Shown in pieces: positions 9,693-53,524 of a stretch of 64,000 nt of DNA; within the stretch, counting starts at the first letter, position 1, and each line of letters starts with the position of its first letter. This DNA is from a virus. The notes beneath the pieces were generated by a model. That model searched no databases, was not told the origin of the DNA, and saw only the letters and a list, made by a program, of their open reading frames with translations. Position numbers and translations under genes: made by a program. The stretch lies in UHGV virus genome UHGV-0109738. One strand, given 5' to 3'.

Positions 9693-9971
9693 TTAAAACC
9701 ACTCCCTGAGCGGGCGCTCTGGTGTAACCACCCACTCACGGAACACGGAATCATCAAATCCATCGTCAAGAAGACGGATATTAACAAAGTACCCTTCGTT
9801 TCGCGTGTATTCTGGTTCTCCGTCATCAGAAACATCTGTCTCCCTGAACGTAAAACCAATCTCATCAACCAGAACGGCATTCTGCAGCTCTTCGTCCTCT
9901 TCCCAGTTAAGTTTCCTGAGAAATGCCCTGAAATCTGCTTTATCACTGAAACGCAACGTGAAATCTCTCAC
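9693..9971 (-). CDS. hypothetical protein (92 aa), possibly tail-fibre associated
   Basis: ORF track; 4-nt overlap with tail fibre gene stop. Confidence 0.4.
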   Translation of the reverse strand: MRDFTLRFSDKADFRAFLRKLNWEEDEELQNAVLVDEIGFTFRETDVSDDGEPEYTRNEGYFVNIRLLDDGFDDSVFREWVVTPERPLREWF

Positions 9972-11767
9972 TCCACAACCTCCCCAAGCTGCGCATCTGT
10001 TAGCTCTTTATGCCAGAGACGAAAATTCCTCACATGCCCAAATAAATGGCGTAATCCTGCTGTAGTTTGTCCACCAATGCGAATGGTTGCTGTACTCCGG
10101 ATATATTCCCATTTGGTTTTAGTTTCGCTGCTTAACTTACCGTTACTGACTACACATGTGGACCGTTCGGACTTTACCCGCATACCAATAAGCATTTTTT
10201 CCAGCCCGGCATTTTCATTTATTCGTCGGTCTGAACCACCTATATCACAATACGGAAAACCGTCGTACCCACCTGATGAACCAAACCCCATTACGATCCC
10301 CGCATCTGCCTGATGCCGGTATGTGTCAAAAACACGCGGCGCTGCATTTGGCGTTTTATACCAGTTCTTATGTACCTCACAAAGAACCGTAAAAGGAAGA
10401 TTATAAAGATTATTCTTAATCGGAACTGTAACCATATCGCTTGCCCGCGTTACCGGTGCCGTCCCCGTAACAATAAAAGATGATGCGCCTGTACCAGCCT
10501 CAATCTGTGGAGTGGTTACATCGAGATAATCCCCTGATGCAACCATCTGCCCTGTATCCGGAGAATACTGGACAAAACCACCAACCGTATTTTCTGTTGT
10601 ATCTGCTTTTAATGTAGCCTCAAAAAATATCCAGCCAGTTGCATCATCCTTAACAGACCTTGCTGTAACACGGCTTGTCTGACCTGTCTTGCTAATTATG
10701 CGGGTGGTAAGGTTCAGGTTTGCTGCTCCTATTGATGTCCTTACCTCCCCATCATAATGTTCAAATAAAATACGAACGGCGATATTATCAACTTCACTTT
10801 TTACCCGACAGGATATAGTTACATGCTTTTCGTCCCCTGAAGTATCAACCCCTCCGGCACTCGAATACAGTCCGGTAATGGTATGCGCTTTACTTGTACC
10901 AACAATCGAATCCTGTACGACAAACCGGCCATAATTAAACCCAAAACTATCTGTGCCTGTTTCTGTAACGTCCAGTGAAGTTGACTTATTCCACTTCGAA
11001 GGGTCTGTACTGTTTATTAACAGGTTTGTGCGCGTCCCCTCAATCAGTAATCCTTCGCGTTCAAAACGTGGCTCATTAATACCAGCCACAGTTAAAACAC
11101 CTGATTTGTTAATGTAAGTAGCAGTGCTTGCGCGTGAGAAAGAAACAACTTTATCTGATGATATTGTTTTTTCTTCCCCATTAATGGTTACTTTTTTAGT
11201 ACCAGGGCCGTAGCCCGTGATCATATCGAGAGAATCGTTAAACGGTATCCATACGTCCGGCAGCGGTTGCAAAACATACGCGTAAGGCTGTGCGGTCTGA
11301 TTGGCGTATTCGTGGGCTTCGTCTCTGTATGTCTTAGCTGAATCGGCTGCGCTTGTCGCTGTTGTTGCAGCGTTGGTTGCAGTGGTAGCTGATTGTGATG
11401 CTAATTTTGAGGCTGAAATCACATCTTTGTTGTCGCTAAAAAATTCAACTGCGTCCGCTATTTCTGATTCTTTGCCCTGATAGTAACGCAGTGTTTCGGC
11501 GACATCCTGAGCAAGACCATCCACAGAGATCGAATCTGAAAGCAGGATGCTAAATTTAGTTCCAGCCGGAATAGCCGGACTTGCCGCAGGAGTTACCGAC
11601 AAACTTGTTGCGCTTTTTACCTTTGTGATTGAAAAAATCTGCACCGGATCGCTAATGGCAATAAGAGTGCAACCCACTCTGATCAGAGATAATGCGGCGT
11701 TGAATTCAGTCCCTGCCCCGGTAACTGTGTTTCCGCTAACAGCTATAGTGCCTGTTGTGTAAATCAT
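9968..11767 (-). CDS. side tail fibre protein
   Basis: 599 aa; N-terminal MIYTTGTIAVSGNTVTGAGTEFNA and TTATNAATTATSAADSAK region typical of lambdoid Stf proteins. Confidence 0.75.
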   Translation of the reverse strand: MIYTTGTIAVSGNTVTGAGTEFNAALSLIRVGCTLIAISDPVQIFSITKVKSATSLSVTPAASPAIPAGTKFSILLSDSISVDGLAQDVAETLRYYQGKESEIADAVEFFSDNKDVISASKLASQSATTATNAATTATSAADSAKTYRDEAHEYANQTAQPYAYVLQPLPDVWIPFNDSLDMITGYGPGTKKVTINGEEKTISSDKVVSFSRASTATYINKSGVLTVAGINEPRFEREGLLIEGTRTNLLINSTDPSKWNKSTSLDVTETGTDSFGFNYGRFVVQDSIVGTSKAHTITGLYSSAGGVDTSGDEKHVTISCRVKSEVDNIAVRILFEHYDGEVRTSIGAANLNLTTRIISKTGQTSRVTARSVKDDATGWIFFEATLKADTTENTVGGFVQYSPDTGQMVASGDYLDVTTPQIEAGTGASSFIVTGTAPVTRASDMVTVPIKNNLYNLPFTVLCEVHKNWYKTPNAAPRVFDTYRHQADAGIVMGFGSSGGYDGFPYCDIGGSDRRINENAGLEKMLIGMRVKSERSTCVVSNGKLSSETKTKWEYIRSTATIRIGGQTTAGLRHLFGHVRNFRLWHKELTDAQLGEVVE

Positions 11768-11809
11768 CGCAATAACTCCGTTTTGTTAATTAACTAAACA
11801 ATTCTACCA

Positions 11810-11831
11810 TTTTGTGATCTGTGTTACACTT
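11810..11831. promoter_or_regulatory. CRP-consensus-like site TGTGA-N6-TTACA in divergent intergenic region
   Basis: cattTTGTGAtctgtgTTACAc; 19 of 22 nt shared with site at 19160-19181. Confidence 0.35.
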
Positions 11832-11964
11832 TGGGCTTATACATAATGTATTTTTTGATCTATATCAACATACGAAATGATAGCTTCTGCGGTGATTTGC
11901 TCATCGGATGGGTGGATCATCACGAACAACAAATGACAGTAAAACAAACAGTAAGGTGAATACA

Positions 11965-12210
11965 ATGAAAAAACTAATTGTTGCTTGCATCTTATCAGCT
12001 CTGTCTTTTGGTGCTTTTGCTTCTGTAAATTCGACAGATAAGAGTGATGCTGGCACTGCTCAATATGGTGATACTGGCCTTGATAACCAACGTTCGAGTT
12101 ATTTCAATACTGACTCATGGAAAGAAAAACAACTACAAGGTAAAATTATTGACAGTGAATGTAATTTACCTATCCATTTTTCTGGTGTAAATGATGGGTG
12201 TAAAAAATAA
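11965..12210 (+). CDS. secreted small protein (moron), 81 aa with signal peptide
   Basis: MKKLIVACILSALSFGAFA signal sequence; AAGGTGA SD; opposite strand to tail genes; own terminator. Confidence 0.55.
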   Translation: MKKLIVACILSALSFGAFASVNSTDKSDAGTAQYGDTGLDNQRSSYFNTDSWKEKQLQGKIIDSECNLPIHFSGVNDGCKK

Positions 12211-12221
12211 AAACAATGCAT

Positions 12222-12250
12222 AAAAAAACGGGGCTTATGCCCCGTTTTTT
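12222..12250. terminator. bidirectional rho-independent terminator
   Basis: AAAAAA-cggggc-ttat-gccccg-TTTTTT between moron ORF and J stop. Confidence 0.75.
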
Positions 12251-15200
12251 ATGCTGTCGTTGATGTTCTAAATGATCCGGTGCCTCTTGCTACTATCATT
12301 GTTGGAGAATACAACGCGGTACAATATGCGTATCCTTCAGATGATGATGTTTGAGGACAATATATTTTCCCGATAATATCTGATGCTTTTAAACCAGAAA
12401 AAGCGCATTGCACTGTTAATGTGCATCCACCATAAGGCACGTAATATGAAATTGTTTTGTTTTTATCTCCGCAACTAAACGTTACGTTATAAGTGGATCT
12501 ATATTCACCAGACATTAATGAAATAGTCGCCATAAGCATAACTGATTTCGTCAATGCATTATCCGTGCTGTCTTTATATGTGATGGTTGCGCTATAACTT
12601 CCGTTATGCCCAAGCACTCGATCTGGACCAACCCCCATGTTAGCAACGTCACCGACAAATGACTTTGCCTCTACTGTACCTTTAAACTTCCCGCTTGTGG
12701 CCTGAATCTCACCAGTGAATTTACCAGATGTTGCGTACACCGTACCGCGTACAGTGACGTTGTTGAACTCCGCATTGCCGTTTTTATTTAGCATCCAGCC
12801 AGCCGAACCAGCTTTATAGTTGGTTGACTGAATTTGCTGCGCAATCTTCGCGGTAGTGATTGATGCGTCTCTGATCCACGCATCACGGATGTAGCAAGCA
12901 CCGTTAGTAACATAGAACGGGGTCTGATAGGAGCCACCTGCCGCAGTCATAAGCACGAAACGGTCAACGAGGAAAATACACTGCGATTGAACGTTAGTCC
13001 CGCTACCAGTAAGGCCGAGCGACATTCCTGTAGCGTATTTCATACCGTTTTTATCAGTGGCAATCTTAATTGAATATGACGCATCAACGTTACCTTTGAA
13101 GTCAGTCAGTGCTTTTGATGTCGTTTCTATCGCCGTTGTGTTTCCGTTAATAGTTACTTTCAACTGGTCGATTCTGGTTGACAATGCCTCGTCTGCCGTT
13201 GCCATAGCCTGTGACCATTCCGTGATGCTTGAGTTTACATCGTCGAAAGATGCCGAGATCTGGCCAAATTTTTCCGCGCTTGATGTTTCATGCGTAGAAA
13301 GTGCAGTTGACACTTCGGATACTTTCGAATTAATCGTACTGGTAAGCGATGAGTTAAGGCTGCTGATTGCGTCAGTGCGTGCATTCTTCTCATCTGCGAT
13401 CGCTTTATCCATCCTGGTTACGTTGCTTGTCACCTTGCTATCGAGCGTGGAAATTGACGCATTAACCCCGCTAATAGCTTCTGCGCGTGCGCTCGCCTCA
13501 TCTGCGATTGCTTTATCAAGACGGGAAACGCTCGCGTCGGTCTTGCTTTCAAGACTACTGACGCTGGCGTTAACGTTGCTAATAGCTTCTGCGCGTGCGC
13601 TCGCCTCATCTGCGATTGCTGTGTCTACCCTTGCTATTTCCGCTTTTGTTTTTCTTTGTCCTTTCCTGTATTTCGCCTCAATAACAGTGCTCATCTTGCT
13701 TTGCGCCATTGAGTTATTAATAAGCGCCAGAGATGCGTTTTGCAGACCTGCTTTCGCCTGAACTATCTCGTCGCTGTTTTTATCAACCTCACTTTTAACG
13801 CTGCCAAGCGACGCGCTGATACCTGATATCGCCTGAGCGCGTGTGCTTGATTCGTCAGCGATAGCTTGATCAAGACGGCTAACACTGGCATTTGTGTTAT
13901 TTTCAAGCGTTGTTAAATCAGCTTTAACCACTGTTATTGCGTCGCTTCTTGCCTGCGTTTCATCTGATATTGCCTTATCGAGGCGCTTAACACTGGCGTC
14001 AGTTTTCTTGTCAAGCGTTGAGATACTTGCGTTCACGTCGCTGATAGCCTGAGTACGCGCACTTGTTTCGTCTGCAATTGCCCGATCAAGACGGTTTACG
14101 CTGGCGTCAGTTTTCTTGTCAAGATTGCTTATTGAGGCATTTACACCGTTAATAGCTTCAGCGCGAGCGCTGGCCTCGTCAGCTACTGCGCGTTGCACAT
14201 TAGAGATCTGACCTTTAAGGTTTGTGTCCATCACATTCATTTCTGCCGTGATGGTTTCCAGTGATTCCGCTGTCGCTTTTTTCTCTTCAGCGATAACGTT
14301 GTCAATGCGGTCAATTTCCGCTTTCGTCTCTGTCCTGCCTTTCTTGTACTGAGCGGTAAGAGTTACGCGAGTGTTAGTCTGTGCAAGCGAGTTATTAATA
14401 AGAGCAAGTGAGGCGTTTTGCAGACTTGCTTTTGCTTGCGCTAGTTCGCTGCCAACTTTTTCGCTAGACACCTCTAGCGAGTCGATTCTCGACTCATGCT
14501 GTCCAATATCATCGGCGTTTTCCTTAACCTTTTTATAAAGATCTTCCGTTTCTTTTTTAAGTGTGTCCGTGTCAGCTTTTATTGATCCCGTTTCTATGGT
14601 TAGGTTGTCAGTTTCAGTCCTTAAATCGTCAGTTATATTGGTCAGATTATCAGTTGCAGTTTTGAGGTTGTCAGTAGCAGTTTTAAGGTCATTCGTAGCG
14701 CTTTCGATAAGATCAGTGCGGTCGCCTAGATCTTTAATGTCACCAACCATTTCTTTAAATTGTTTGGAATTCATTACGTCTTTGGTGACGTAATCGGTAA
14801 TTTCGTCAAAGTTTTCTGTTGGCTTACCTGACGCTTCCACAAAGTCAGACACACCAAAAGCGTTACGCGTGCGCACATAAACGTAATATATGTGACCTGT
14901 ATTCATGCCGCCAAACGTCCACTGATGACCACGCCCCGTATATTGTGCTTTAGTGGTTACTGATGCCGGGTCGGTGATCTGTGTTTCACCTGAGTAATAA
15001 AACTCGTAACTGGTATCAGTGGTAAGCGTTGTTCTGCTGATCGGATACACTGTTGCCTGGAATACACCAGGAACCCAATTAACGCCAATCGGGGCTGCTG
15101 GTGCACCAATAACCAGATCAACTATACTCTCAGCGCCCTTCATGCCAGTATCATTACGACCGCGAATGCCTAATGAGTAGGTTCCTGAATCAATGCCATA

Positions 15201-17219
15201 AAAATCATAACTGTAATTCGTAGTTTCGTAGCTTTTAACCACAGCGCCGTCGGCGTTATACACGCGAATCTCAAAGGTCAGGCGACGCGTTGTCGTCTGT
15301 GTTTCCCATGTTGCGCGACATTGAACCGTTTCAGATCCAACGTTTAACACCTTCAGATTTTCAATGTTCGGCACGCGGAAGTGATTAAGCGTGTCGTTAT
15401 TGATCTCGAAGATTGCGCCATTATCGACTACGGCCTGCTTATGTGGATCATGCTGTGCGGCCTCGATGGTGTATACGCTGTTATTTTCTGTTTCTGCTAC
15501 GCTGGTGATTCGACATAAAACGGGTTTTGCTGCGTTGGTTGATACAGCAAAAACAGTACCGTTACGAATCCATGCCGGGGCGGATGCAAGGGTAATTTTG
15601 TTTCCGCTAACTCCAGTGATCTGGTGTTTTTTAAACTTGCCATCGCTATCAAGCAGGCTGATCGTATCTCCAGCGGAGATATATTTGGCATCAACCTTGT
15701 CTACAGTTATTACTTTGCCATTGTTCGCAACGATGCGACCGCCTAAGCGAGCGCCTGCGCGGTTATTGTCCAGGATTTCGATAATATCACCTGGCGTAAA
15801 GTGAATCGCGTCACGGGCCATTTTAAACGTGAATTTTGACGGCTCGCGTTTTGCTGTTTCTATCAGCCATTTGCCAGCGCGGTACGCTTGCCCGCGTGAC
15901 GTGCAACCGAAAGCCTCTAGCGTGGTTTCGTTATAACCATCGCGGGCGATCAGTTCATCGTCTGCCACGTATTCTTTTGATTGCTCCCAGCCGTTTTCCG
16001 GGTCAGTCCATGACACAATCACGGCGTTGTAAGATTCTGCGCGGGCAATACTTGAACGAGTAAACGCGCCATCAACTACGTTTGCATTTGTAATGGTGGC
16101 GATTGGATCTTGTGGCGCATCAATCATCACGGTAAGGCGCTGCCCGTCCCATAATGCAATACCACGGAACATGCCTGCAATATTATCCAGTAAGTCGCGT
16201 GCGCTAATTTGTTCCGTGATGTAAGCATTAAGCGTCATGCGAGGTTCAAAGCCGCCGTAACCATCGCTAACCAACTGATCGCAGTATTGGGAAAGCGTAT
16301 ATAATGCGCCATCGTCAACATCAATGTAACCAGCGTGGCGAGCAAGTCCGAAACGTTCATTTTTAACCAGATACCGGAAAAGCCATGCAGGGTTATTGGT
16401 GTACGCTTTTTTAAATCCACCAAGCCATAAACCGGAATACGTGCGCGTTTCAGGGTTATAGTTGTCCGGCACATCAACAATCAGTCCGCGCAGATGATAA
16501 GTGCGGGCAGGAGTATCAGTATACTGGTCATGGTCAATTACCGCGCCAGCTACAGCGGTATGAGGGTAAGACAGGTTATCGTCGATTATCTCGCTGTAAC
16601 TGCTCCACCGCGTATCATTACGAAGAAGATCGCTTTTGCTGTCTGGCGTTACGCGACGAACGCGAATATCAAACGGCTTTTCATCCGGTGCGTTGATAAC
16701 GTGAGCTTCCAGGTATTCACCACTCTGTTTACCAGGCCCGATCGTAATGTCTTTAACCAGCGACCACGTCGATGATGATGATGGCTTAACATCAACCATT
16801 AACATGACTGACGTGTTATATTGATTGCCCTTATCATCTGACTGAACTAGAGCATCAACGCCAACATTCAATCTAACGCGGGTGACGTTTGGGTCTGAAA
16901 CGGTCCTGATTATTGGCGTATCGTGAGTTACCTTCGCATTGACAATAACAGTTGATTCAATGGCGTTAAAACCGTTAATCGGTGATTGGTCAGCTGTGCC
17001 ATTGCGCCACGCTATACTTACCCCAGGGATTGACGTATTTCCGTTGGCGTCAGTAACAGGCGTGTCATTAAGCATCACATCATTTAATGGCGCTTTCTGG
17101 TTTACCGGGCCGTATATCGGCCCCTCGCTGAGAATGTCTAAAACACGATAAAACTGTTTATGATACAGGTTATCGTTCAATAAATGTGGTGTTTTGGCTT
17201 TGCCGCCGCCGCTACTCAT
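12249..17219 (-). CDS. J: host specificity / central tail fibre protein J (expanded, 1656 aa)
   Basis: N-terminal and C-terminal regions align with lambda J (e.g. RVRRVTPDSKSD..WSSYSEIID); about 500 aa repeat-rich coiled-coil insertion. Confidence 0.9.
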   Translation of the reverse strand: MSSGGGKAKTPHLLNDNLYHKQFYRVLDILSEGPIYGPVNQKAPLNDVMLNDTPVTDANGNTSIPGVSIAWRNGTADQSPINGFNAIESTVIVNAKVTHDTPIIRTVSDPNVTRVRLNVGVDALVQSDDKGNQYNTSVMLMVDVKPSSSSTWSLVKDITIGPGKQSGEYLEAHVINAPDEKPFDIRVRRVTPDSKSDLLRNDTRWSSYSEIIDDNLSYPHTAVAGAVIDHDQYTDTPARTYHLRGLIVDVPDNYNPETRTYSGLWLGGFKKAYTNNPAWLFRYLVKNERFGLARHAGYIDVDDGALYTLSQYCDQLVSDGYGGFEPRMTLNAYITEQISARDLLDNIAGMFRGIALWDGQRLTVMIDAPQDPIATITNANVVDGAFTRSSIARAESYNAVIVSWTDPENGWEQSKEYVADDELIARDGYNETTLEAFGCTSRGQAYRAGKWLIETAKREPSKFTFKMARDAIHFTPGDIIEILDNNRAGARLGGRIVANNGKVITVDKVDAKYISAGDTISLLDSDGKFKKHQITGVSGNKITLASAPAWIRNGTVFAVSTNAAKPVLCRITSVAETENNSVYTIEAAQHDPHKQAVVDNGAIFEINNDTLNHFRVPNIENLKVLNVGSETVQCRATWETQTTTRRLTFEIRVYNADGAVVKSYETTNYSYDFYGIDSGTYSLGIRGRNDTGMKGAESIVDLVIGAPAAPIGVNWVPGVFQATVYPISRTTLTTDTSYEFYYSGETQITDPASVTTKAQYTGRGHQWTFGGMNTGHIYYVYVRTRNAFGVSDFVEASGKPTENFDEITDYVTKDVMNSKQFKEMVGDIKDLGDRTDLIESATNDLKTATDNLKTATDNLTNITDDLRTETDNLTIETGSIKADTDTLKKETEDLYKKVKENADDIGQHESRIDSLEVSSEKVGSELAQAKASLQNASLALINNSLAQTNTRVTLTAQYKKGRTETKAEIDRIDNVIAEEKKATAESLETITAEMNVMDTNLKGQISNVQRAVADEASARAEAINGVNASISNLDKKTDASVNRLDRAIADETSARTQAISDVNASISTLDKKTDASVKRLDKAISDETQARSDAITVVKADLTTLENNTNASVSRLDQAIADESSTRAQAISGISASLGSVKSEVDKNSDEIVQAKAGLQNASLALINNSMAQSKMSTVIEAKYRKGQRKTKAEIARVDTAIADEASARAEAISNVNASVSSLESKTDASVSRLDKAIADEASARAEAISGVNASISTLDSKVTSNVTRMDKAIADEKNARTDAISSLNSSLTSTINSKVSEVSTALSTHETSSAEKFGQISASFDDVNSSITEWSQAMATADEALSTRIDQLKVTINGNTTAIETTSKALTDFKGNVDASYSIKIATDKNGMKYATGMSLGLTGSGTNVQSQCIFLVDRFVLMTAAGGSYQTPFYVTNGACYIRDAWIRDASITTAKIAQQIQSTNYKAGSAGWMLNKNGNAEFNNVTVRGTVYATSGKFTGEIQATSGKFKGTVEAKSFVGDVANMGVGPDRVLGHNGSYSATITYKDSTDNALTKSVMLMATISLMSGEYRSTYNVTFSCGDKNKTISYYVPYGGCTLTVQCAFSGLKASDIIGKIYCPQTSSSEGYAYCTALYSPTMIVARGTGSFRTSTTA
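13380..14220. repeat. intragenic tandem repeats within J (coiled-coil repeat region)
   Basis: Exact 43-bp repeat gctaatagcttctgcgcgtgcgctcgcctcatctgcgattgct at 13473 and 13582; protein repeats RLDKAIADExSARxxAIS..NASIS..KTDASV. Confidence 0.7.
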
Positions 17220-17232
17220 GGTTTTTCTCCTG

Positions 17233-17763
17233 TTAACTTACAACGTCTAATGCATCTCTGTTGTTGCTTGTGTCTATGCCTAACGATCCGACGTTTGAAC
17301 CTATTTTCATTTCACCCAACAGGATTGGCACTGGTCTACCCTGGCCTACCTTGTTTTCAACGCTGGTGTAGGTGTTGTTCGTTATGGTGTTATCTTGTGC
17401 GCTTTCTGCTGACGTCTTTATCTTCAGGTTGCGAGACATAAAGATCGAGAACGCAACGCTAACCACTGAAACACCAATCAAGATCCAACCCACAACACCA
17501 ATCCCCGCAATACCACCTTCAACTACTGGAGCAATAATGATGGTTGTTCCGTCAGGGTATTTACTGTTAACCGCTGCTGGCGCGGTCTTTTCGTCATAAT
17601 CTTTTCCGGCAATTCGTAAGCGCAAAGGTGTATTTAAAAAAGCCTTCTTGAACTCCTGATCCTGCGCGGTCAATAGGCTAAGTCCTTGCGCTGGCGTATC
17701 AACGTTTAAACACACTTTGCCGTAATATCTTCGAAGATTGCCCGTAAATCTAAATTTGAGCAT
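17233..17763 (-). CDS. I: tail assembly protein I
   Basis: C-terminal motif PVPILLGEMKIGSNV resembles lambda I (VLPVLYGEMRVGSRV); position between K and J. Confidence 0.75.
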   Translation of the reverse strand: MLKFRFTGNLRRYYGKVCLNVDTPAQGLSLLTAQDQEFKKAFLNTPLRLRIAGKDYDEKTAPAAVNSKYPDGTTIIIAPVVEGGIAGIGVVGWILIGVSVVSVAFSIFMSRNLKIKTSAESAQDNTITNNTYTSVENKVGQGRPVPILLGEMKIGSNVGSLGIDTSNNRDALDVVS

Positions 17764-18437
17764 TTGTCAGATCTCCATATTGAATGCGTTTGTCGAACAT
17801 ACGCGGGCCGCATTTGCTCGCGGCGGCTTAGCAGTCCGGCATTGTCATGATGCAAAACAGTGTTATCGCCCAGGAAAATCATCGCGTGGCATGGGTCAGC
17901 ACCTTTAAACGGCTGGCGGATAATCACGTCACCAGGCTGAATGCTTTGCGCATCAACCATGAAAAACCCGTTCAATGGCAGGTTTTTTATGTACAGGTTT
18001 TCCCCACGCAGCCACCACCCATCGTGGCGCTCAAAGTCAGGTAGATCCACGCCGCAAAGGTGATAGGCGTCACGGAAAAGCGAGTAGCAGTCTGTTTTCC
18101 CGTGCTCAAATTTACGGCCTAACAGGTGCGCTACCGGGAGAAACTTTCTCACCCTGCCACCTGAACATAAAAACCACGGCAGGCCGGAAATAACATGCTG
18201 TTGTCGATCCCGTGCCGACAATACCAGGGTATCATCGGTGTGGGAGTGGAAAACTGCTGTTATAACGCCTAATTCGTCAGCTTTGATATAATCGTCAGGC
18301 GAGATTTTAAAGCTGTTGTGCGGCGTTTCAGACACGTTTAAGCACGGGTAAAAATAATCGTTATCTATCACCAGGCCGCAAACTTCCTCACGCGGGTGTG
18401 CTGCTGCATAGCGAATCATTTTATCTTCAAGCGCCAT
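17706..18437 (-). CDS. K: tail assembly protein K (MPN/JAB plus NlpC/P60-like)
   Basis: HSHTDD metal-binding motif; position between L and I; start set at ATG just after L stop. Confidence 0.7.
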   Translation of the reverse strand: MALEDKMIRYAAAHPREEVCGLVIDNDYFYPCLNVSETPHNSFKISPDDYIKADELGVITAVFHSHTDDTLVLSARDRQQHVISGLPWFLCSGGRVRKFLPVAHLLGRKFEHGKTDCYSLFRDAYHLCGVDLPDFERHDGWWLRGENLYIKNLPLNGFFMVDAQSIQPGDVIIRQPFKGADPCHAMIFLGDNTVLHHDNAGLLSRREQMRPAYVRQTHSIWRSDKCSNLDLRAIFEDITAKCV

Positions 18438-18439
18438 AA

Positions 18440-19144
18440 TCAACCCACCTTGCTTGATCCTGGGAAACATGAAATTGGTAACGGATTCGGGCGCGGAAAA
18501 CGCAAACGGCAACCGCTTAGGCGGTGGCTGCATTTATCCAGCTTTGGATCGCTTGTCGATTCGTCTTTGTCAGTAGCTACAGGGCCGCCACTATATCCGC
18601 AACCGTCGCCGCGATATTGCCACTGGCAAACGTCAGCGAGGATTGTGCGCCCAGGGATAACCGCTTTATCAGCATCAATTGGCGTTGACAGTTCATATTG
18701 CACCTGGTCCGCTGTTTCTTCGCTCATCGCTTCAACGACGTAAAAAGACACAGCCTCAATAGATGGATCTGCATCTGGATTGCCGTTGGGGAAGTTAACG
18801 GCGTCCAGGTATTTTACTTCCACCTGGCGGCGAGTAACCTTCATTCCTCGCAGGTCGTTGAAATCGTTATTCATCCCGGTGATTAGCCCGCCAATGTTGG
18901 CTACTACCATTTGGGGGCGTGAGTAAACGCCTTCGTTTTTCATTTCGAAGCCAGTTGCCTCGATCGGGTAGCTGTTGTAAGCCAAGCCCTTCCAGATAAC
19001 CTGGCCGTAATAGCCATTCGCGCCGGAATGGAAGCGGATAACCTCGCCACCCAGGGGCGTAAGGTCCAGCTCAAATAAGTCAATGACCGCGCCGACTCCG
19101 GCATCGACGGAATCAATAATCATCTCTCTCGGAATATTGCGCAT
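18440..19144 (-). CDS. L: minor tail protein L
   Basis: Aligns with lambda L throughout (e.g. YLDAVNFPNGN, CQWQYRGDGCGYSG, DKCSHRLSGC). Confidence 0.9.
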   Translation of the reverse strand: MRNIPREMIIDSVDAGVGAVIDLFELDLTPLGGEVIRFHSGANGYYGQVIWKGLAYNSYPIEATGFEMKNEGVYSRPQMVVANIGGLITGMNNDFNDLRGMKVTRRQVEVKYLDAVNFPNGNPDADPSIEAVSFYVVEAMSEETADQVQYELSTPIDADKAVIPGRTILADVCQWQYRGDGCGYSGGPVATDKDESTSDPKLDKCSHRLSGCRLRFPRPNPLPISCFPGSSKVG

Positions 19145-19159
19145 TTTCTCACCTTGTCA

Positions 19160-19181
19160 TTTTGTGATCTGCGTCACGCTA
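19160..19181. promoter_or_regulatory. CRP-consensus-like site TGTGA-N6-TCACG in divergent intergenic region
   Basis: cattTTGTGAtctgcgTCACGc; homologous to 11810-11831. Confidence 0.35.
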
Positions 19182-19235
19182 AATCATACCAAAATGGATT
19201 GATCGAGGTTTTTACAATATGTATATTTTACTCAA

Positions 19236-19442
19236 ATGAAGGGGAAGTTAACAAAATGGCACAAAGGGCGCGGGATGAACGATAAACTATGGAGACTGAC
19301 CTTATTTGTGAGTAATGGGCGTGATATCGAGGCTGAATTCGATAACCCTAGCGACGCCTTAGAAACGTCCATTTACCTATCAGAAAAAGATGATCGCGTC
19401 CTGGGCTACCGGATTAAACCGATTAAAAGCGGGGATCAGTAA
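19236..19442 (+). CDS. hypothetical moron protein
   Basis: ORF track; opposite strand to tail genes; start uncertain (internal ATG at 19275). Confidence 0.35.
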   Translation: MKGKLTKWHKGRGMNDKLWRLTLFVSNGRDIEAEFDNPSDALETSIYLSEKDDRVLGYRIKPIKSGDQ

Positions 19443-19443
19443 A

Positions 19444-19794
19444 ATGCAAAAATACCGTCTAGATGTATGGATGGCAGGCAGTAAAGATTGGGAAGGTTAC
19501 GGATTATATGACAGTTACGAAATGGCAGTCGAGGAAGGAGAAAAACTTGTTCGCTTCTTCGGGCGCGCCAGGGAATTCAAAATAACTCAGGTACAAATAG
19601 ATGAGAAGGTGGAAGATATGAACCCGAAAGATATTAACTTTAACGTCAATGTTAATTTTGCTGACTCTATGGATCAGTCTTGCCCTGGTGAAATACACGC
19701 AAAGGGTTTCCCGGCTGATGATCCTGATGCAAAACGCGAATACGAAAAAGCGGCAAAAGATTTCTGTATCGACAATTTAAGTTGCTTTGATTAA
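19444..19794 (+). CDS. hypothetical moron protein (116 aa)
   Basis: ORF track; start reassigned to ATG overlapping upstream stop. Confidence 0.45.
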   Translation: MQKYRLDVWMAGSKDWEGYGLYDSYEMAVEEGEKLVRFFGRAREFKITQVQIDEKVEDMNPKDINFNVNVNFADSMDQSCPGEIHAKGFPADDPDAKREYEKAAKDFCIDNLSCFD

Positions 19795-19799
19795 AAATT

Positions 19800-20285
19800 A
19801 TGAAATGGTACAACATCTTTACTTATAATGAAGGGAAATTATTCTGGAAGATACCAACAAGCGGTAGAATTACCAACGGCAAGGAAGCCGGAAGTTTGCA
19901 CAACGGGTATATTGTTATCTGTGTGCAAAATAAAAAGTATAAGGCACACAACATAATTTGGGAAATGCACAACGGCCCGATCCCAGAAGGGTATGTGATT
20001 GACCATATAAACCATATAAGGAGTGATAACAGAATATAAAATCTAAGAATGATAACAAAACAAGAAAACATGAAAAATATGCCGTTATCCAGAAGGAATA
20101 AGAGCGGGTGCATTGGCGTATGGTGGAATGAAGCGAATAAAAAATGGATTGTAAGAGTGATGATTAGTGGGGTGTATCGGCATATAGGGTGTTTTAATAG
20201 CTACCTTGATGCGTGTAACGCCTCAAAAGAAGCGCACGAAATCGGAGGGTACTATAAAGAACATGGCGCGGCGCAATCACAGTGA
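19800..20285 (+). pseudogene. HNH homing endonuclease with AP2-type DNA-binding domain, interrupted by a single in-frame TAA
   Basis: Two track ORFs (19800-20039, 20049-20285) are in the same frame separated by TAA at 20037-20039; motifs HNGYIVI..AHNIIWE..IDHINHIRSDNRI then NLR..QENMKNM and AP2-like SGCIGVWWNEANKKWIVRV. Confidence 0.7.
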
Positions 20286-20511
20286 TTATGTATACACGTT
20301 GAAACAGGCCGCCCGCCTTATCGGTTATCATGAACACGAATTTATTGATTTGCTGATTGAGCGCGGGATACTGTACCAGGTCTGCTTAACGCTGTACCCT
20401 AAAGCGAAATACCTACAGGAAAAGTTATTTATCATCATGACGGATGAAAACCAGGTTAATCACTCATTCGTCACTGATAAGGGATTGACATATTTGAAGG
20501 GGGCGTTATGA
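20263..20511 (+). CDS. hypothetical protein (82 aa), possible HTH
   Basis: ORF track; internal ATG chosen; overlaps 3' end of HNH ORF in another frame. Confidence 0.35.
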   Translation: MARRNHSDYVYTLKQAARLIGYHEHEFIDLLIERGILYQVCLTLYPKAKYLQEKLFIIMTDENQVNHSFVTDKGLTYLKGAL

Positions 20512-20588
20512 GATGTGCGAACATTACGTTCTGGAAATGATCATTATCATTATTGGATTGTCATGCATTCTGCTATCGACACTATAAA

Positions 20589-20613
20589 CCCCGCCGTGGC
20601 GGGGTGTTTTTTT
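20589..20613 (+). terminator. rho-independent terminator
   Basis: ccccgcc-gt-ggcgggg followed by T-run; ends the plus-strand moron cassette. Confidence 0.7.
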
Positions 20614-20806: not shown

Positions 20807-21160
20807 CTAATTAATAACTTGCTCAAATGTTGCATTTAGCGTGTATAGCGGACCGTCTTTAGTCATGCTCCAGCTACGGCAAACAAAAAGCCTTTGCACG
20901 TTATCCATCGACGGCGACCAGTAAAAAGCCTCGACAGCGCCACGCGCCCTCAAGAATGCTTCCGCCTGGATCGCTACATTCCCACCATCGCCGCATCCTG
21001 CACTACTGCCTTTAAAAACCAGGGTGTAACTATCAAGTAATGTGTTAATCCCTTTCGCCTGGCGTTGTTCATACCCATCACCAAGTTTAATGACAGATAC
21101 GTTTGGTTCCCTGGTCACGCTGTAGCTTCTTTGCGGCGTCCATCTGAACACTTCCGGCAT
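20807..21160 (-). CDS. M: minor tail protein M
   Basis: N-terminal FRWTP..GDGYEQR and C-terminal NATFEQVIN match lambda M (FRWKV..GDGYSQR; EFSAEFEQVVN). Confidence 0.85.
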   Translation of the reverse strand: MPEVFRWTPQRSYSVTREPNVSVIKLGDGYEQRQAKGINTLLDSYTLVFKGSSAGCGDGGNVAIQAEAFLRARGAVEAFYWSPSMDNVQRLFVCRSWSMTKDGPLYTLNATFEQVIN

Positions 21161-21192
21161 AAAACCCCCACAAGTTACATTTTGTATATATC

Positions 21193-21216
21193 TTTACGCG
21201 CTTCTACGCGAAAAAT
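21193..21216. promoter_or_regulatory. conserved motif TTTACGCG-N4-TACGCGAAAAAT (copy A) upstream of M
   Basis: tttacgcgcttctacgcgaaaaat; second copy at 33325-33348. Confidence 0.4.
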
Positions 21217-21327
21217 GAGATCTTTGTCACAATGATTATAGCTAGTTTACAAAATGGCTTCACGTAGCATGCAACAAGATGTATATAGAAAGCAAGAAGA
21301 AAGCAGTACCAACGAAGGAGGCCCAAA

Positions 21328-21483
21328 ATGAAACGCTATGTAGTAGTAATGCTAAATAACGCATTCGAACAAGTGGAAATAGCAATCGTTAAGGGTTTCG
21401 ACGACGCATTCAAATACGGTCAATTCATGATGAATGCGAAAGAAGATGAATACCGGGACTTCTTCCTGAAGGCACTTAACTAA
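21328..21483 (+). CDS. small protein (51 aa) with strong RBS
   Basis: GAAGGAGG SD 7 nt upstream of ATG; below the 60-aa track cutoff, found by manual translation. Confidence 0.5.
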   Translation: MKRYVVVMLNNAFEQVEIAIVKGFDDAFKYGQFMMNAKEDEYRDFFLKALN

Positions 21484-21500
21484 GGATGATGGGGTGAGTT

Positions 21501-21755
21501 ATGAAACTGGTAGCGATTGACAAAAACCTGAAAGCACAGAAAAACGCGCCGGAACGTGTAGTTAAAAAAGCAAGGGAGCTTTTGAACGCGTTTTTAAACA
21601 AGGATGTGTCGCCCAAAAAATTAAAAGACGGTTACGGCTACGCCTTCCGCGCCAATTTAGACTGGCGAGTCTATAGCCAGGATCTGAAGGAGTGGGTGAT
21701 TGTTGAACATCATAAATTTAATGAATTATCTGGCGTGCGCGGTTGCCATAAGTGA
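21501..21755 (+). CDS. hypothetical protein (84 aa), weak RelE/HigB-toxin-like motif
   Basis: ORF track; motif GYAFRANLDWRVY..VIVEHH reminiscent of RelE/HigB-type toxins (unverified). Confidence 0.4.
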   Translation: MKLVAIDKNLKAQKNAPERVVKKARELLNAFLNKDVSPKKLKDGYGYAFRANLDWRVYSQDLKEWVIVEHHKFNELSGVRGCHK

Positions 21756-21865
21756 GTCGGGATATGAAGGACGATAAATTCACCTGGCGTGAGATCTGGA
21801 ACATCTGGTTAGTGATGTCCAGTAGGAGTTACATCGCACGTAACGGCAGACTGTAGGAGAAAAAA

Positions 21866-22048
21866 GTGATTATTGAAGAAACAAAACGTTGTTATGGTGT
21901 CCGGTTAGATCTTGAAAATGATGTATTGTGGATAACCGAACTTATGGGGACTGACACCATCGTGATTGACAAGTCGCAGGCTGTACAGCTTATTGCTGGA
22001 CTACAAAAGTTTGTTGATGGTGAGTTTAAAAACGAAGAGGTAGACTAA
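21866..22048 (+). CDS. hypothetical protein (60 aa)
   Basis: ORF track; GTG start with AGGAG SD. Confidence 0.4.
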   Translation: MIIEETKRCYGVRLDLENDVLWITELMGTDTIVIDKSQAVQLIAGLQKFVDGEFKNEEVD

Positions 22049-22053
22049 GAAAA

Positions 22054-22072
22054 AGGCCACTATAAGTGGCCT
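22054..22072. terminator. terminator-like hairpin (bidirectional)
   Basis: aggccac-tataa-gtggcct flanked by A-run and T-containing run. Confidence 0.5.
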
Positions 22073-22077
22073 TAGTG

Positions 22078-24420
22078 TTATTTGCGGCGCGGTTGCAACA
22101 TTCCGCCCGGTCTTTGAGATTCCCTTGTTATCATCTTCATAGCTACACGTTCCATTGTCTGTTCAAGTCTGCGGCTGTCTTCGTCGCTGAATCCGTTCGT
22201 TGTCTGAATGCTGATACTGACAGGCATACTAATACCGCCACCGCCGCCAATATCACGGCCCGGAATAACTCTGCCGTTCTCGCCAGGAATCATATATTGA
22301 TTCCCGTTAGGCGTCTGGAATAGCTCCGTCCTGTTGTTTTCCCCGACACGGTACAAGTTGCCACCAATGACGCTACCACCATTAAAGCGCCTGCCACCGA
22401 AGATGGATGTTGCCAGAGACATGATCGCAGTGAGTGCCGCAGAGCCAGCCGCCGCCCAGCTACCGCCAGTTGATGCTGCTGTTGCCGCCGCTGCCGGGGC
22501 CGCTGCCGCAGCGATGCTACCCTGAGCGGCTACCGCACTTGCCGTTGTGCTGGCCTGCGTTGCCTTGCTTTGTGTCTCCATCATGATTTGATCTGCTATC
22601 CAGTTGGCGGCTATGTCAGAAAGCCTGTTGCCGATGTTCCCTAGTATATTGCTCCCTAAGTTAGCAAAAACATCGCTCAATGATTGAGTGCCGTTAAGCA
22701 GGCCAACAAGCGCATTGCTCATGCCACCTTTAAGGCCATTAACGCAATCACCGATAAGGCCGTTAGTGTCGCTTTGCGCCTGCCACTGCTCCCATTTCAG
22801 ATCGCGGATCTGCTGCTCATAGGCTAACAATTCCTGTTTCTGTTGTGCTTCTGTAGCGCCCAGGTCGATAAGCATTTGCTTACGGACGGCCCATTCATTT
22901 TGTGCCTGCTGGATGGGGTCAACCTCGCCTTTTAGCTGGTCCATCGGGCTAACTATTTGCGACCATTTATCACGCAGTTCATCTACCGGGATCTGCGCTA
23001 ATTCTTCTTTCAGTTCCTTGCCGATCCCTTTTTGCGCGGCGCGGTACTCAAGGAGCGTGATTTTACCCTGGGCAAATGCAGCATCAATGGCCTTGCCGTT
23101 CTCCAACGCTTTGCGCATGGCGGCGGCGTCTTTGTTGTACTGATCAGAAACGCTTATACCTTTGTCACCAAGCCGATCAGCTTCCGATTTCTTCTCTTTT
23201 TTCTGTTTTTTCGGCTTGTCTACTGGCTTGTCGAATCCGGTAATCGCTCCGTCATTGGCAGCATTCTGTTCATTTTTCCTTGCTTCTTCTGTAGCCTGGA
23301 TTGCTGCGGTCAGATCATCCTGTAGTTGCATGACCTTGCCAACGGTCTTCCCGTATTTCTTCTCGTAGTTGCTGTTATATTCGTCGGTTTGCTCTCCTAC
23401 TACCTCCTTCACCCATTTATAGCCATCCATTAGCGCCTTGATTGGCGTCACCATTGCGATGATCTTCTCTGCCACCTCTCCAGCCTTAACAGCCACATCA
23501 TCAAACATGTCGATAAATTCGCTACCAGCCGTTTTGAGTGTGTCGAAGCAGGTTTTAGCGAATTTAGCGCCATCGCCAAGCCCTTTAACGCCTTTCGTGA
23601 TCAAGTCGATAGCTGAAACAACGCCATCTGACACGCCAAAAAGATCATCCAACTGCTCAACAAGGCCCATAATTTCTACTTTAAGCTCATTGATAGCCAT
23701 GCCGGATGTGCGCGGCAACTGAGCAAACTTATCGTTTGTTTCCTGCGTAGCCGCCTGTATTGCGTTAACCATCCTTTCAGCCGTGATCTTGCCGTCCAGC
23801 ATTTCGGCGCGGAACTGGCCCATTGATAATCCCATATGGCGGGCCATTGTTTGTACGATGGTCGGCGTGTTTTCAAGCAGGCTGTTAAATTCTTCGGCAC
23901 GAAGAACACCGCCGTCGATAGACTGACGGAATTGACGCATTGAGTTAGACATCTGTTCCGCTGACGCGCCGCCTAATGCACCCATTTTCTGAATAGTGCC
24001 AACCAGGTTAAGCAATTGCCCTTCCGTAGCGGAGGTGTTTTTTAGTGAGATAGCCAGGCCTTGCCATAATTCGCCAGTATCTTTCAGGCTCTGCCCCGTC
24101 TCCCTGGATATTTCTTTCAGACCATCAAAAACCCGCCCGGCAGATTCCGCGTCGCCTGTAAGCATTTTGATTTTGACGCGTAGCATTTTGGCCTGCTCTG
24201 CCATTTCCATAAACTGTCTAACGGCCTCGGCAGCAATTAGCAGATGGATAACCCTGGTCAGTGCTTTGATTGATGTTTTCAGTGTGTTTACCTGGCGATC
24301 GGCCTGTTTAGCACCGCGCTCTATACGGTCAAAGGCCTGGTCTGCCTGTCGTTGTGCTACAAGAAGTTGTCCTGTTTTTGCGTCAACTTCGTAATAAATT
24401 GTGCCTACACTGGTAGCCAT
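22078..24420 (-). CDS. tail tape measure protein
   Basis: 780 aa, alpha-helical, Gly/Ala-rich C-terminal region; located between tail chaperone position and M. Confidence 0.85.
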   Translation of the reverse strand: MATSVGTIYYEVDAKTGQLLVAQRQADQAFDRIERGAKQADRQVNTLKTSIKALTRVIHLLIAAEAVRQFMEMAEQAKMLRVKIKMLTGDAESAGRVFDGLKEISRETGQSLKDTGELWQGLAISLKNTSATEGQLLNLVGTIQKMGALGGASAEQMSNSMRQFRQSIDGGVLRAEEFNSLLENTPTIVQTMARHMGLSMGQFRAEMLDGKITAERMVNAIQAATQETNDKFAQLPRTSGMAINELKVEIMGLVEQLDDLFGVSDGVVSAIDLITKGVKGLGDGAKFAKTCFDTLKTAGSEFIDMFDDVAVKAGEVAEKIIAMVTPIKALMDGYKWVKEVVGEQTDEYNSNYEKKYGKTVGKVMQLQDDLTAAIQATEEARKNEQNAANDGAITGFDKPVDKPKKQKKEKKSEADRLGDKGISVSDQYNKDAAAMRKALENGKAIDAAFAQGKITLLEYRAAQKGIGKELKEELAQIPVDELRDKWSQIVSPMDQLKGEVDPIQQAQNEWAVRKQMLIDLGATEAQQKQELLAYEQQIRDLKWEQWQAQSDTNGLIGDCVNGLKGGMSNALVGLLNGTQSLSDVFANLGSNILGNIGNRLSDIAANWIADQIMMETQSKATQASTTASAVAAQGSIAAAAAPAAAATAASTGGSWAAAGSAALTAIMSLATSIFGGRRFNGGSVIGGNLYRVGENNRTELFQTPNGNQYMIPGENGRVIPGRDIGGGGGISMPVSISIQTTNGFSDEDSRRLEQTMERVAMKMITRESQRPGGMLQPRRK

Positions 24421-24723
24421 GATTTAACCTCATGCAAAATGTGATCTATGCATCTATTTTATACAAAATGTCTTTATTTTAACGATACCGTTTTGTATAG
24501 ATGATGTAGAGAAAGATAGAAGAGATGCAGGAAGGCCGGATGTCCCGGAGGAAGTGAAAGAGGATAAGAAAATGAGAAACGTAAACTACCGTCCCAACGA
24601 ATATGAACGCTATGCGGACCTTATCGAAGAAATGTTAAAAGCACTTAAAAAATAAACAATATGCGTGTATAACTAAGTTAAAGGAAGCATTTAGCAAATC
24701 AGAATAATTACAGGGGGTTGATT

Positions 24724-25143
24724 ATGAAACGGTTAGCAAAAATGGTGCTTGCTGTGATTGCTGCACTAGCATTTAACGCTAACGCTAACGCTAACGAGGC
24801 CATAAACATTAACTGTGAAGAAGTGGCAAACCATGTAGCCGCATATCACGACATGATCAAAAAAGAACCAGCCGCACCCACAATTCTTTTTAAGGCAATT
24901 GATAAAAATTTTGAAGGTAAACCAGTTTATGCTCGTTGGTTTAATTATGGCCTTGTAAACGAGGCTGCTGTAGGCGTAGTCTTTGAAAACAACAGCGAAA
25001 TAAAAAACAGGATAGCTAACGAGTGTAAAGCAAATAAAGTTGCTTTCGCTGAAAGAATTTTTAATAAAGGCGGCGCTGGTGCAAAAAATCACGCAATTGT
25101 CGATTTAGGTAACGGTTTTATTGATATTGTTAGAATCAAATAA
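24724..25143 (+). CDS. secreted hypothetical protein (moron), 139 aa
   Basis: Signal peptide MKRLAKMVLAVIAALAFNANA; AGGGGG SD; contains AACGCT x3 hexamer repeat. Confidence 0.55.
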   Translation: MKRLAKMVLAVIAALAFNANANANEAININCEEVANHVAAYHDMIKKEPAAPTILFKAIDKNFEGKPVYARWFNYGLVNEAAVGVVFENNSEIKNRIANECKANKVAFAERIFNKGGAGAKNHAIVDLGNGFIDIVRIK

Positions 25144-25150: not shown

Positions 25151-25173
25151 GCCCGGATCTACCGGGCTTTTTC
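25151..25173 (+). terminator. rho-independent terminator
   Basis: gcccgg-atcta-ccgggc followed by TTTTTC. Confidence 0.7.
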
Positions 25174-33432: not shown

Positions 33433-33450
33433 TTGATAATAATCAATAAC

Positions 33451-40351: not shown

Positions 40352-40429
40352 TTTTCTACCCTCCGCATCGTTCTCTCTTCAGCTTCTTTATAACAAAATG
40401 GCACTGCCGAAACAATGCCATTTCGTAAA

Positions 40430-40451
40430 CCTTGTGATACAGATCACATTT
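40430..40451. promoter_or_regulatory. perfect CRP-consensus site TGTGA-N6-TCACA
   Basis: ccttgTGTGAtacagaTCACAttt in the only sizeable intergenic gap (40352-40449) of the late small-gene block; adjacent 8-bp inverted repeat aaatggca/tgccattt. Confidence 0.45.
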
Positions 40452-46411: not shown

Positions 46412-46519
46412 AATGCTCCCTCCCTTTAAGGTGATTTCTACGCATTTCAGCGCTGCCGGATTTTTAAAGAGCATTTCGTTTGCTTGAAGTATACAAAATG
46501 GATACGCCAGAACAAGGTG

Positions 46520-46561
46520 AATGGCGCCATTATGTGATCCACATCACGCAATGGCGCCATT
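46520..46561. promoter_or_regulatory. twin 12-bp perfect palindromes AATGGCGCCATT flanking a CRP-like TGTGA-N6-TCACG
   Basis: aatggcgccatt at 46520 and 46550, 30 bp apart; centre atgTGTGAtccacaTCACGc. Confidence 0.45.
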
Positions 46562-46570
46562 TTGTAAATT

Positions 46571-48309: not shown

Positions 48310-48849
48310 TTAGTCATTATTTGCGCCTCTCGCGTATAGCTCTTTACGTGTTATCTGCGTGAAAATACATTCATGTCTGCACCGTGGATGCCAGATCAAG
48401 AACAAGCTCCCTTTATTGTTTCCGCTTGCTGGTTTCCCTGTCGCGGCATTTATAAAAGCCAGCCGCCCGCGCGTAATTAATCGGCATTCGTTTGCCGTCT
48501 CCACGCCGTTCATAAACCAGTTAACAGAAATGTCAGCGGGCAATAACATTACACAGCCAATGTGATTTCGTTGATGTTCAAGCGCCGCCTTATCAACGAA
48601 TGGCCCCGGATTAGAATATGGCGGATTCATCCAGACATACTCACCAGGCATCGCCACCGCTCCCCACGGATAATGGAGCGTGTCCATTTCTTCGGTTATA
48701 TATCGCGGTATTAATGCGTTTGCCTTGTTTGCCGCCACATCCGCGACGAATTCGAATTCCAGATCCATTCCTCTAAAAACAGGTTTCGGCGTCTGCCATA
48801 GGTCTTTTATTTCTTTCGGCGTGTTGCTGCCGCCGTAATCATTTTTCAT
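48310..48849 (-). CDS. phage-type DNA N6-adenine methyltransferase (Dam family)
   Basis: Catalytic NPPY motif (VWMNPPYSN); size 179 aa typical of phage Dam. Confidence 0.7.
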   Translation of the reverse strand: MKNDYGGSNTPKEIKDLWQTPKPVFRGMDLEFEFVADVAANKANALIPRYITEEMDTLHYPWGAVAMPGEYVWMNPPYSNPGPFVDKAALEHQRNHIGCVMLLPADISVNWFMNGVETANECRLITRGRLAFINAATGKPASGNNKGSLFLIWHPRCRHECIFTQITRKELYARGANND

Positions 48850-50096: not shown

Positions 50097-50138
50097 TTAC
50101 AATACAAAATGTATATTTATGTGATCGGAATTACTCGG

Positions 50139-53375: not shown

Positions 53376-53524
53376 CCTTTAATCTCCTTCGCTGTTAACA
53401 CTATGTATAAGGCTTTATTCGCGGCGCTCCACATTTCGGCATCATGAAGCATTTCCGCTACCGCCAGTTTGAATTGAAGCGCCAGAATAACCATAATGTT
53501 ACCCCCGAATGTTTACATTTTGTA

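Follow-up and report, generated by a model that had tools for sequence, protein, structure and literature searches.

This analysis concerns a set of short intergenic sequences resembling binding sites of the host regulator CRP in the tail module of the virus genome UHGV-0109738, a stretch of 64,000 nucleotides that is referred to here as the window. The window belongs to a temperate, mEp021-like (mEpimmI) siphophage of Escherichia coli. Its tail genes lie on the minus strand and include H (22078-24420), M (20807-21160), L (18440-19144) and stf (9968-11767) as well as K, I and J. This tail operon is broken by four plus-strand cassettes, which are located between J and stf, between M and L, between H and M, and upstream of H. 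For comparison, relatives were drawn from E. coli genomes and IMG/VR and comprised approximately 45 mEpimmI-type loci retrieved via the L protein, 32 loci retrieved via the stf leader and eight annotated phages or prophages; a megablast search of the stf region against a phage collection gave no match. Among them were L010, which has the same L protein and an identical L upstream region, and the M1/5 prophage, which is 99.9% identical over the stf-cassette region and approximately 93% identical in the L region. The four-cassette layout was kept in every relative examined, and the cargo differed, forming 16 clusters among 45 loci.

The J-stf cassette encodes a secreted protein of 81 amino acids (11965-12210, GC content of 0.37) and ends, together with J, at a bidirectional terminator (12228-12246, ACGGGGC TTAT GCCCCGT with T-runs on both strands), which was read directly from the sequence and had been missed by the terminator scan. 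In relatives, this slot holds Cor/Lpp exclusion lipoproteins, and Lpp genes taken from it exclude phages when cloned and expressed (PMC11893012). The M-L cassette (19275-20511, GC content of 0.39 to 0.42) encodes proteins of 55 and 116 amino acids, an HNH pseudogene and a 74-amino-acid protein with a KilAC domain, and it is followed by a plus-strand terminator at 20588-20605. An in-frame stop divides its gene for an HNH (homing-type) endonuclease into two parts (19800-20039 and 20049-20285); this gene is an insertion found in the window and in L010, and most relatives have no HNH gene in that slot. The H-M cassette (21328-22048) encodes proteins of 51, 84 (ParE-like) and 60 amino acids and ends at a bidirectional terminator (22053-22073). 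The 51-amino-acid open reading frame (ORF) and the ParE-like gene behind it (21328-21755) are conserved in many relatives and possibly constitute a toxin-antitoxin pair. The cassette upstream of H (24573-25143) comprises a 27-amino-acid ORF and a gene for a secreted protein of 141 amino acids, again with a bidirectional terminator (25151-25167); the last three terminators were all detected by the terminator scan. The original prediction had stated that the J-stf and M-L cassettes each end in a terminator of their own, and a hairpin with a T-run is indeed present behind both. The cassettes have a lower GC content than the tail genes (0.37 to 0.43 versus 0.45 to 0.56) and are insertions between otherwise adjacent genes, as J and stf adjoin in L006, L008, L096 and L104 and M and L adjoin in a distant group and in L033. 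By the classical criteria of insertion, terminator, GC content and, for the M-L cassette, a promoter (the other promoters being weak candidates), the cassettes are morons.

The CRP-like sequences lie in the divergent regions that separate these cassettes from stf, L, M and H. A 22-bp sequence had been noted in the regions upstream of stf and L, and this repeat proved to be real. Exactly two copies of the degenerate 22-mer CATTTTGTGATCTGYGTYACRC are present in the window (11808-11829 and 19158-19179), identical at 19 of 22 bases, while the number of copies expected from 100 dinucleotide-preserving shuffles was zero with up to three mismatches allowed. Outside the 22-mer, the two control regions align poorly. 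The 22-bp CRP consensus, AAATGTGATCTAGATCACATTT, is two-fold symmetric with the core TGTGA-N6-TCACA. The cores on the stf side (TGTGATCTGTGTTACA, 11813-11828, centre at 11820.5) and on the L side (TGTGATCTGCGTCACG, 19163-19178, centre at 19170.5) both match it with a single mismatch, as had been proposed. The positions originally assigned to the repeat, 11810-11831 and 19160-19181, are those of the canonical 22-bp CRP frame (TTTTGTGATCTG), whereas the string quoted with them begins 2 nt further left. A second shared segment was said to follow about 30 bp further on. It exists in both regions as ATGTAT(A/T)TTTT (AATGTATTTTTT at 11845-11856 and ATGTATATTTT at 19219-19229); the distance is about right at stf (approximately 35 nt from the start of the 22-mer) but not at L (approximately 59 nt).

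Two more sites had been overlooked. A third strong CRP-type site, AAATGAGATCTTTGTCACAATG, is located in the divergent region between M and the H-M cassette (21213-21234; core TGAGATCTTTGTCACA at 21216-21231, centre at 21223.5), and a weak fourth one, AAATGTGATCTATGCATCTATT, in which only the left half is good, lies between H and its upstream cassette (24437-24458, core at 24440-24455). In some relatives the H-proximal site reads TGTGATCTAGATCTCT. The A/T flanks of the 22-bp consensus are matched at the M and H sites, and at the stf and L sites the left flank is matched. Judged by their sequences, the two sites first noted belong to a larger set that extends across the family and comprises three strong sites and a weak one.

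Scoring with a CRP position weight matrix, which the original prediction had named as a check, placed three of these sites among the best positions of the window. The L site scored 16.5 bits (16.0 with a first version of the matrix) and ranked 3rd of approximately 64,000 positions, the stf site scored 15.7 bits (15.0) and ranked 4th, and the M site scored 13.7 bits (14.4) and ranked 5th to 6th. Training sites that were each left out of the matrix scored 7.4 to 15.2 bits, so that the stf, L and M sites reach the range of genuine sites; the H site of the window (4.6 bits, rank 107) is outside it. Rebuilding the matrix without two poor training sites left the ranking of the sites unchanged. Five sites of at least 14 bits were counted in the window versus 0.33 expected, and TGTGA-N6-TCACA with at most one mismatch was found seven times versus 2.0 ± 1.5 expected. 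The same four sites are present in mEp021 with 17.1, 12.8, 11.5 and 12.0 bits, the last value being that of the H site. Across 489 kb of mEpimmI-type tail loci, 47 hits of at least 14 bits were obtained, with at least one per locus; 418 kb from the distant group yielded none. One CRP-like sequence, AAAGGTGATAGGCGTCACGGAA (12.2 to 12.4 bits), is located inside K at 18056-18077 and is conserved in mEp021 and M1/5; it probably reflects coding constraint and is not a regulatory site.

Alignments of the relatives revealed a pattern of constraint within the sites. Among 39 unique sequences of the L site, GTGAT and CAC were 100% conserved and the central spacer was 64 to 79% conserved, with 15 distinct 16-mers. 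Among 38 unique sequences of the M site, TCACA was 95 to 100% conserved and the spacer 53 to 82%, with 17 distinct 16-mers. Mean conservation at L was 0.992 for the half-sites, 0.812 for the spacer and 0.940 for the other intergenic columns; the corresponding values at M were 0.963, 0.737 and 0.916. Conserved half-sites around a free spacer would be expected of the site of a dimeric protein and not of a crossover point, and the pattern is not that of an RNA stem because no compensatory changes were found. The spacers at stf and L diverge independently in relatives, and the resemblance between the two 22-mers seems best explained by a match of both to the same protein-binding consensus.

The sites also co-occur with cassettes. 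All 28 unique cassette-bearing J-stf junctions contain the stf site (9.6 to 15.4 bits), which has decayed to 4.4 bits or less in three types of cassette-less junction, where the -10 element of stf and the neighboring palindrome are kept. This survival of the stf -10 element while the site decays links the site with the cassette rather than with stf. In the distant group (approximately 72% identity of L), M lies directly upstream of L, and neither a cassette nor an L site is present. A natural empty M-L slot was found in L033 (IMGVR_UViG_3300045988_076424, at +100 to +130 from the L start), which keeps the control region with site and promoter and has lost cargo and terminator. The junction lies at ACAAAAT, a heptamer that recurs in the window toward the right-hand end of the slot (approximately 20780), which suggests a microhomology-mediated deletion.

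The rightward promoter geometry was derived from predicted -10 elements, of which there are four candidates. The clearest is a predicted sigma-70 promoter of the M-L cassette (TTGATC, 17 nt and TATATT at 19199-19227, plus strand), which was found independently by a consensus promoter scan and whose TTGAT and TATATT are essentially invariant in relatives. Its start at approximately 19234 would place the centre of the L site at -63.5; in variants that lack 1 nt, the value would be -62.5. For the J-stf cassette, a candidate -10 element TATTTT (11849-11854, plus strand) is contained in the second shared segment and would put the stf site at -40.5, a class II-like position; mEp021 has TATATT there. 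The predicted start is at approximately 11861, with 11903 as the alternative. The candidate promoter of the H-M cassette (TTCACG, 17 nt and TATATA at 21259-21287, plus strand, -10 at 21282-21287) would start at approximately 21294 with the M site at -70.5, and most relatives have TTCACA as its -35 element. The candidate upstream of H (TTTATT, 17 nt and TATAGA at 24473-24501, plus strand, -10 at 24496-24501) would start at approximately 24508 with the site at -60.5; its -35 element is TTCACT in relatives. An (A/T)TGTATA element is common to all four control regions, and the candidates at stf, M and H were obtained by treating it as the -10 region. Reading its TGTATA as a canonical extended -10 element was rejected because the pattern does not fit, and sigma-54 (tried on AAAATGGCAC), LexA box and TyrR box readings did not fit either.

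On the tail-gene strand, -10-like elements adjoin the sites. A perfect TATAAT (21235-21240), invariant in 38 unique relatives, lies 3 nt from the core of the M site, whose centre would be at approximately +4.5. An extended -10-like TGgTATGAT (19183-19191, 92 to 97% conserved) lies 5 nt from the L core (centre at approximately +5.5), and the -10-like TATAAAAT (24456-24463, 97% conserved) abuts the H-proximal site. For stf, an extended -10-like TGgTAGAAT is present at 11801-11809; its TG is the CA that opens the 22-mer, and the element is kept as TAAAAT in the cassette-less relatives that lost the CRP-type site. The predicted leftward starts are at approximately 11794 (stf), 19176 (L), 21228 (M) and 24450 (H). 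At L, M and H, a protein bound to the site would cover this putative start, and at stf it would cover the spacer and -35 region. The idea that CRP acts as a class II activator of leftward tail promoters was discarded since the predicted starts would lie inside the L and H coding sequences.

The J-stf control region contains a further element, a perfect FNR box (TTGATCTATATCAA, 11855-11868), which matches the consensus exactly and is located 41 bp to the right of the stf site centre, before the moron. The box is exact in 18 of the 28 unique cassette-bearing relatives and is TTGAT-N4-GTCAA in most of the others, with at least four cargo types behind it; it is absent in mEp021. In L002 and L005, a GATATT -10 element puts the FNR box at -41.5, while the equivalent -10 element is poor in the window. 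The box could make this exclusion-gene slot oxygen-responsive. A second exact FNR consensus, TTGATAATAATCAA, was observed at 33433-33446, in the short gap between the genes of the terminase large subunit and the portal protein.

We consider it somewhat likelier than the opposite that the 22-mers are binding sites of host CRP with cyclic AMP (cAMP). The original prediction of a CRP-responsive promoter architecture gains support, at the level of sequence, from the matrix scores, the conservation footprint, the co-occurrence with cassettes and the predicted positions near those of class I and class II, and would extend to the M and H sites. CRP as the bound protein, the start sites and the direction and sign of regulation are what we infer from these features. 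The control regions would be compact divergent units of 90 to 200 bp, flanked on one side by stf, L, M or H as the tail gene of the minus strand and on the other by an AT-rich plus-strand cassette. In the lysogen, cAMP-CRP would recruit RNA polymerase to the weak rightward cassette promoters in a class II-like geometry at stf (approximately -40.5) and a class I-like geometry at L (approximately -63.5), M (approximately -70.5) and H (approximately -60.5). Exclusion, toxin-like and other accessory genes would be switched on when glucose is scarce, and bound CRP may also occlude leftward "restart" promoters at the abutting -10-like elements.

Several observations weigh against this interpretation. 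The CRP matrix was built from a set of classical sites, and the H site is weak in the window. In some relatives, the stf site reads TGTAATC, so that a critical G is weakened. The excess of half-site conservation over the surrounding columns is modest (P of approximately 0.03 at L and 0.14 at M) because intergenic conservation is high overall (92 to 94%); the low conservation of the spacers would be the more telling signal. The L site does not strictly track the cassette, since the empty slot of L033 retains it without cargo. Canonical CRP centres are -41.5 for class II and -61.5, -71.5, -82.5 or -92.5 for class I, and the predicted centres are 1 to 2 bp off the canonical -41.5, -61.5 and -71.5. 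Only the promoter of the L cassette passes the consensus scan; the candidate -10 elements at stf, M and H are weak and below the scan threshold, those at M and H lacking a T at -7. The nearby FNR box complicates the promoter assignment at stf. Finally, the sites adjoin leftward -10 elements, so that the regulated promoter could be that of the tail gene.

Other repeated motifs were found in the same control regions and elsewhere in the window. The palindrome TACA-WWW-TGTA (TACAATATGTA at 19213-19223) has copies at 11840-11850, 21176-21186 and, with one mismatch, 24462-24472, one per tail control region. It occurs 17 times in the window versus 6.1 ± 2.6 expected, overlaps the candidate cassette -10 elements at L and stf, and is kept beside the J terminator in cassette-less relatives; further copies are located at 50103, 53514 and 57681. 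The motif CCATTTTGTA / TACAAAATGG is strongly over-represented as well, its 9-mers being present 13 and 12 times versus approximately 0.9 expected; CATTTTGTA was counted 13 times versus 0.92 expected and ATACAAAATG nine times versus 0.29 expected. Its copies (for example at 21178, 21249, 24463, 40393, 46493, 46558 and 50104, and also at 53516, 54194, 55037, 57682, 58820 and 61748) are mostly intergenic and often followed by a -10-like TAnAnT, and its first eight bases open the 22-mer. This motif may belong to promoters or to a regulator specific to the phage.

CRP-like palindromes were also recorded outside the tail module. The top-scoring one, TGTGATCCACATCACG, is located between two early genes (46493-46570) and is flanked by the self-complementary AATGGCGCCATT, in two copies, and by inverted ACAAAATGG / CCATTTTGT; its equivalent in mEp021 (20087-20120) lies inside a larger hairpin. 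A perfect CRP core, TGTGATACAGATCACA, is found in the intergenic region 40393-40451, in front of a small gene on the minus strand. Conserved in the M1/5 prophage as well, this core adjoins a hairpin (AAATGGCA...TGCCATTT) and a minus-strand extended -10-like TGtTATAAA. Another, AAGTTTGATGCAAGTCACAAAA at 54985 (16.5 to 16.9 bits), lies 23 bp upstream of the start of a CI-type repressor gene (54315-54962), whose neighborhood repeats ACTTGCA and CTTGC-N6-GCAAG, and is conserved in mEp021. This hit was not counted as a CRP site because it contains the ACTTGCA heptad that is repeated in the adjacent putative operators ACTTGCAGACAAGG and ACTTGCAAAGACGCAAG; it is probably a repressor operator and may be used by CRP as well.

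Among the alternatives, the one that we take most seriously, although it is unlikely, assumes that the sites are mainly operators of leftward tail "restart" promoters, at which CRP or a phage factor silences tail genes in the lysogen, with the effect on the cassettes being secondary; it is compatible with binding by CRP. A terminator on the minus strand precedes each tail block, and at M, L and H each site lies 0 to 5 nt from a minus-strand -10-like element, so that its centre would be at +1.5 to +5.5. Such promoters are not strictly required because the phage encodes a Q-like antiterminator, which could read through everything; the stf -10 element persists where the stf site decays, and the conserved A/T-rich blocks might just as well act as UP-like elements of the rightward promoters. 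That a phage-encoded regulator or another host factor with CRP-like specificity binds the sites appears quite improbable. Similar palindromes elsewhere in the intergenic phage DNA (40430, 46530 and 50120), often paired with CCATTTTGTA / TACAAAATGG, would fit such a factor, and many small phage ORFs are uncharacterized. Yet the spacing, the half-sites and the A/T flanks follow the CRP consensus as described above, and no CRP/FNR-family protein was found among ten large early ORFs, the small phage ORFs not being screened, or in the Prokaryotic Genome Annotation Pipeline (PGAP) annotation of the first 49.9 kb of the M1/5 prophage locus. The operators of the CI-type repressor differ from the tail sites, which carry neither ACTTGCA nor CTTGC-N6-GCAAG, and binding of this repressor was rejected. 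The phage has a gene for a Dam-type N6-adenine methyltransferase (48310-48849), and GATC is part of TGTGATC in the stf, L and H cores; dependence on Dam methylation was rejected, too, since relatives do not keep GATC at the M site.

The original prediction had offered a common recombination boundary as its second explanation. A role of the 22-mer as a boundary or linker for cassette exchange, or as the scar of a mobile cassette, could draw on the high mosaicism of the cargo between conserved flanks and on the dead homing-type endonuclease in the M-L cassette, but we regard it as highly improbable. The comparison of junctions across related prophages revealed no breakpoint inside the 22-mers, which belong to control regions whose conservation extends to stf and L themselves. 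With most relatives, homology breaks at approximately 19260 (L) and after approximately 11852-11870 (stf), 40 to 100 bp further right, and the deletion junction of L033 (approximately 19257) is located approximately 95 bp to the right of the L site. Only the window and L010 have the HNH gene as an insertion, and the free spacer between conserved half-sites is not the pattern of a crossover site. Least credible of all is an origin of the sites by chance in DNA that is AT-rich between the genes here, or a function as RNA hairpins (terminator or processing site), for which the annotation of the mEp021 equivalent of the 46530 palindrome as a predicted terminator, TERM_4, might be cited. The lack of copies in the shuffles and of hits in the 418 kb of related phage DNA speaks against chance, and the potential stems reach only 4 bp, with invariant half-sites. 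A search of the sites against Rfam gave no hit, and their RNA folding was no better than that of shuffled sequences (z-scores of -1.9 to +1.1), which ruled out an RNA element; both versions are largely refuted already. A scheme that combines CRP binding with occlusion of the tail promoters, in which each of the four slots is toggled by one CRP site (cassette on, overlapping tail restart promoter off), the J-stf slot is also wired to FNR, and carbon and oxygen status are coupled to accessory functions and residual tail expression, strikes us as doubtful.

If the sites are bound by CRP, they would resemble the class I and class II promoters of E. coli, such as lac P1 (-61.5), malT (-70.5), and galP1 and melAB (-41.5), as classified by Busby and Ebright. 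They share with these the symmetric 22-bp TGTGA-N6-TCACA site, the A/T flanks (at M and H), weak core promoters and near-canonical predicted centres, but they are prophage-borne and antisense in a tail operon, their CRP dependence is predicted, and the H site is weak in the window. In malEp-malKp and araC-araBAD, one or more CRP sites likewise lie between back-to-back promoters, which are predicted here; in contrast to them, the leftward partner in the phage is a late gene that is probably also reached by Q read-through, and the putative leftward start lies within the site and not downstream of it. Promoters of the ansB type are co-activated by FNR at -41.5 and CRP at approximately -91.5. The J-stf slot is similar in having an FNR box downstream of the CRP-type site, with FNR at -41.5 and CRP at -82.5 in L002 and L005, but the -10 element of the window is poor, and its FNR box could overlap the CRP class II start and act negatively. 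Morons in the sense of Hendrix and Juhala, such as bor and lom of lambda and cor of phi80, N15 and HK022, are extra genes between conserved structural genes with their own promoter and terminator and a lower GC content, as are the cassettes described here; unlike known morons, the four slots would have a common family-wide control architecture that includes a CRP-type site. The slots also recall the accessory and defence hotspots of P2/P4-like elements, which have conserved flanks and variable cargo. Fixed positions and fast-exchanged cargo, including exclusion and toxin-like genes, are common to both, but the slots described here are small, number four and lie within the tail operon of a siphophage, and a conserved CRP-type site accompanies each of them.

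We found nothing relevant in the literature on CRP and morons, and the paper describing mEpimmI makes no mention of CRP, morons or tail-module promoters (PMC11893012). On the evidence of the sequences, the tail module appears to present a case, not reported before, of a type of regulation that is already known, with a family-wide architecture of four slots under one control logic. If this holds, exclusion lipoproteins, toxin-like and other accessory genes would depend on the carbon status of the host and, in one slot, on its oxygen status, in a family of prophages that are common among E. coli of the human gut. The tail operon may comprise several transcription units and not a single Q-dependent one. 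The slots would constitute a concrete example of morons plugged into the global regulation of the host, in which conserved promoter-plus-terminator units would let cargo be swapped without rewiring its control.

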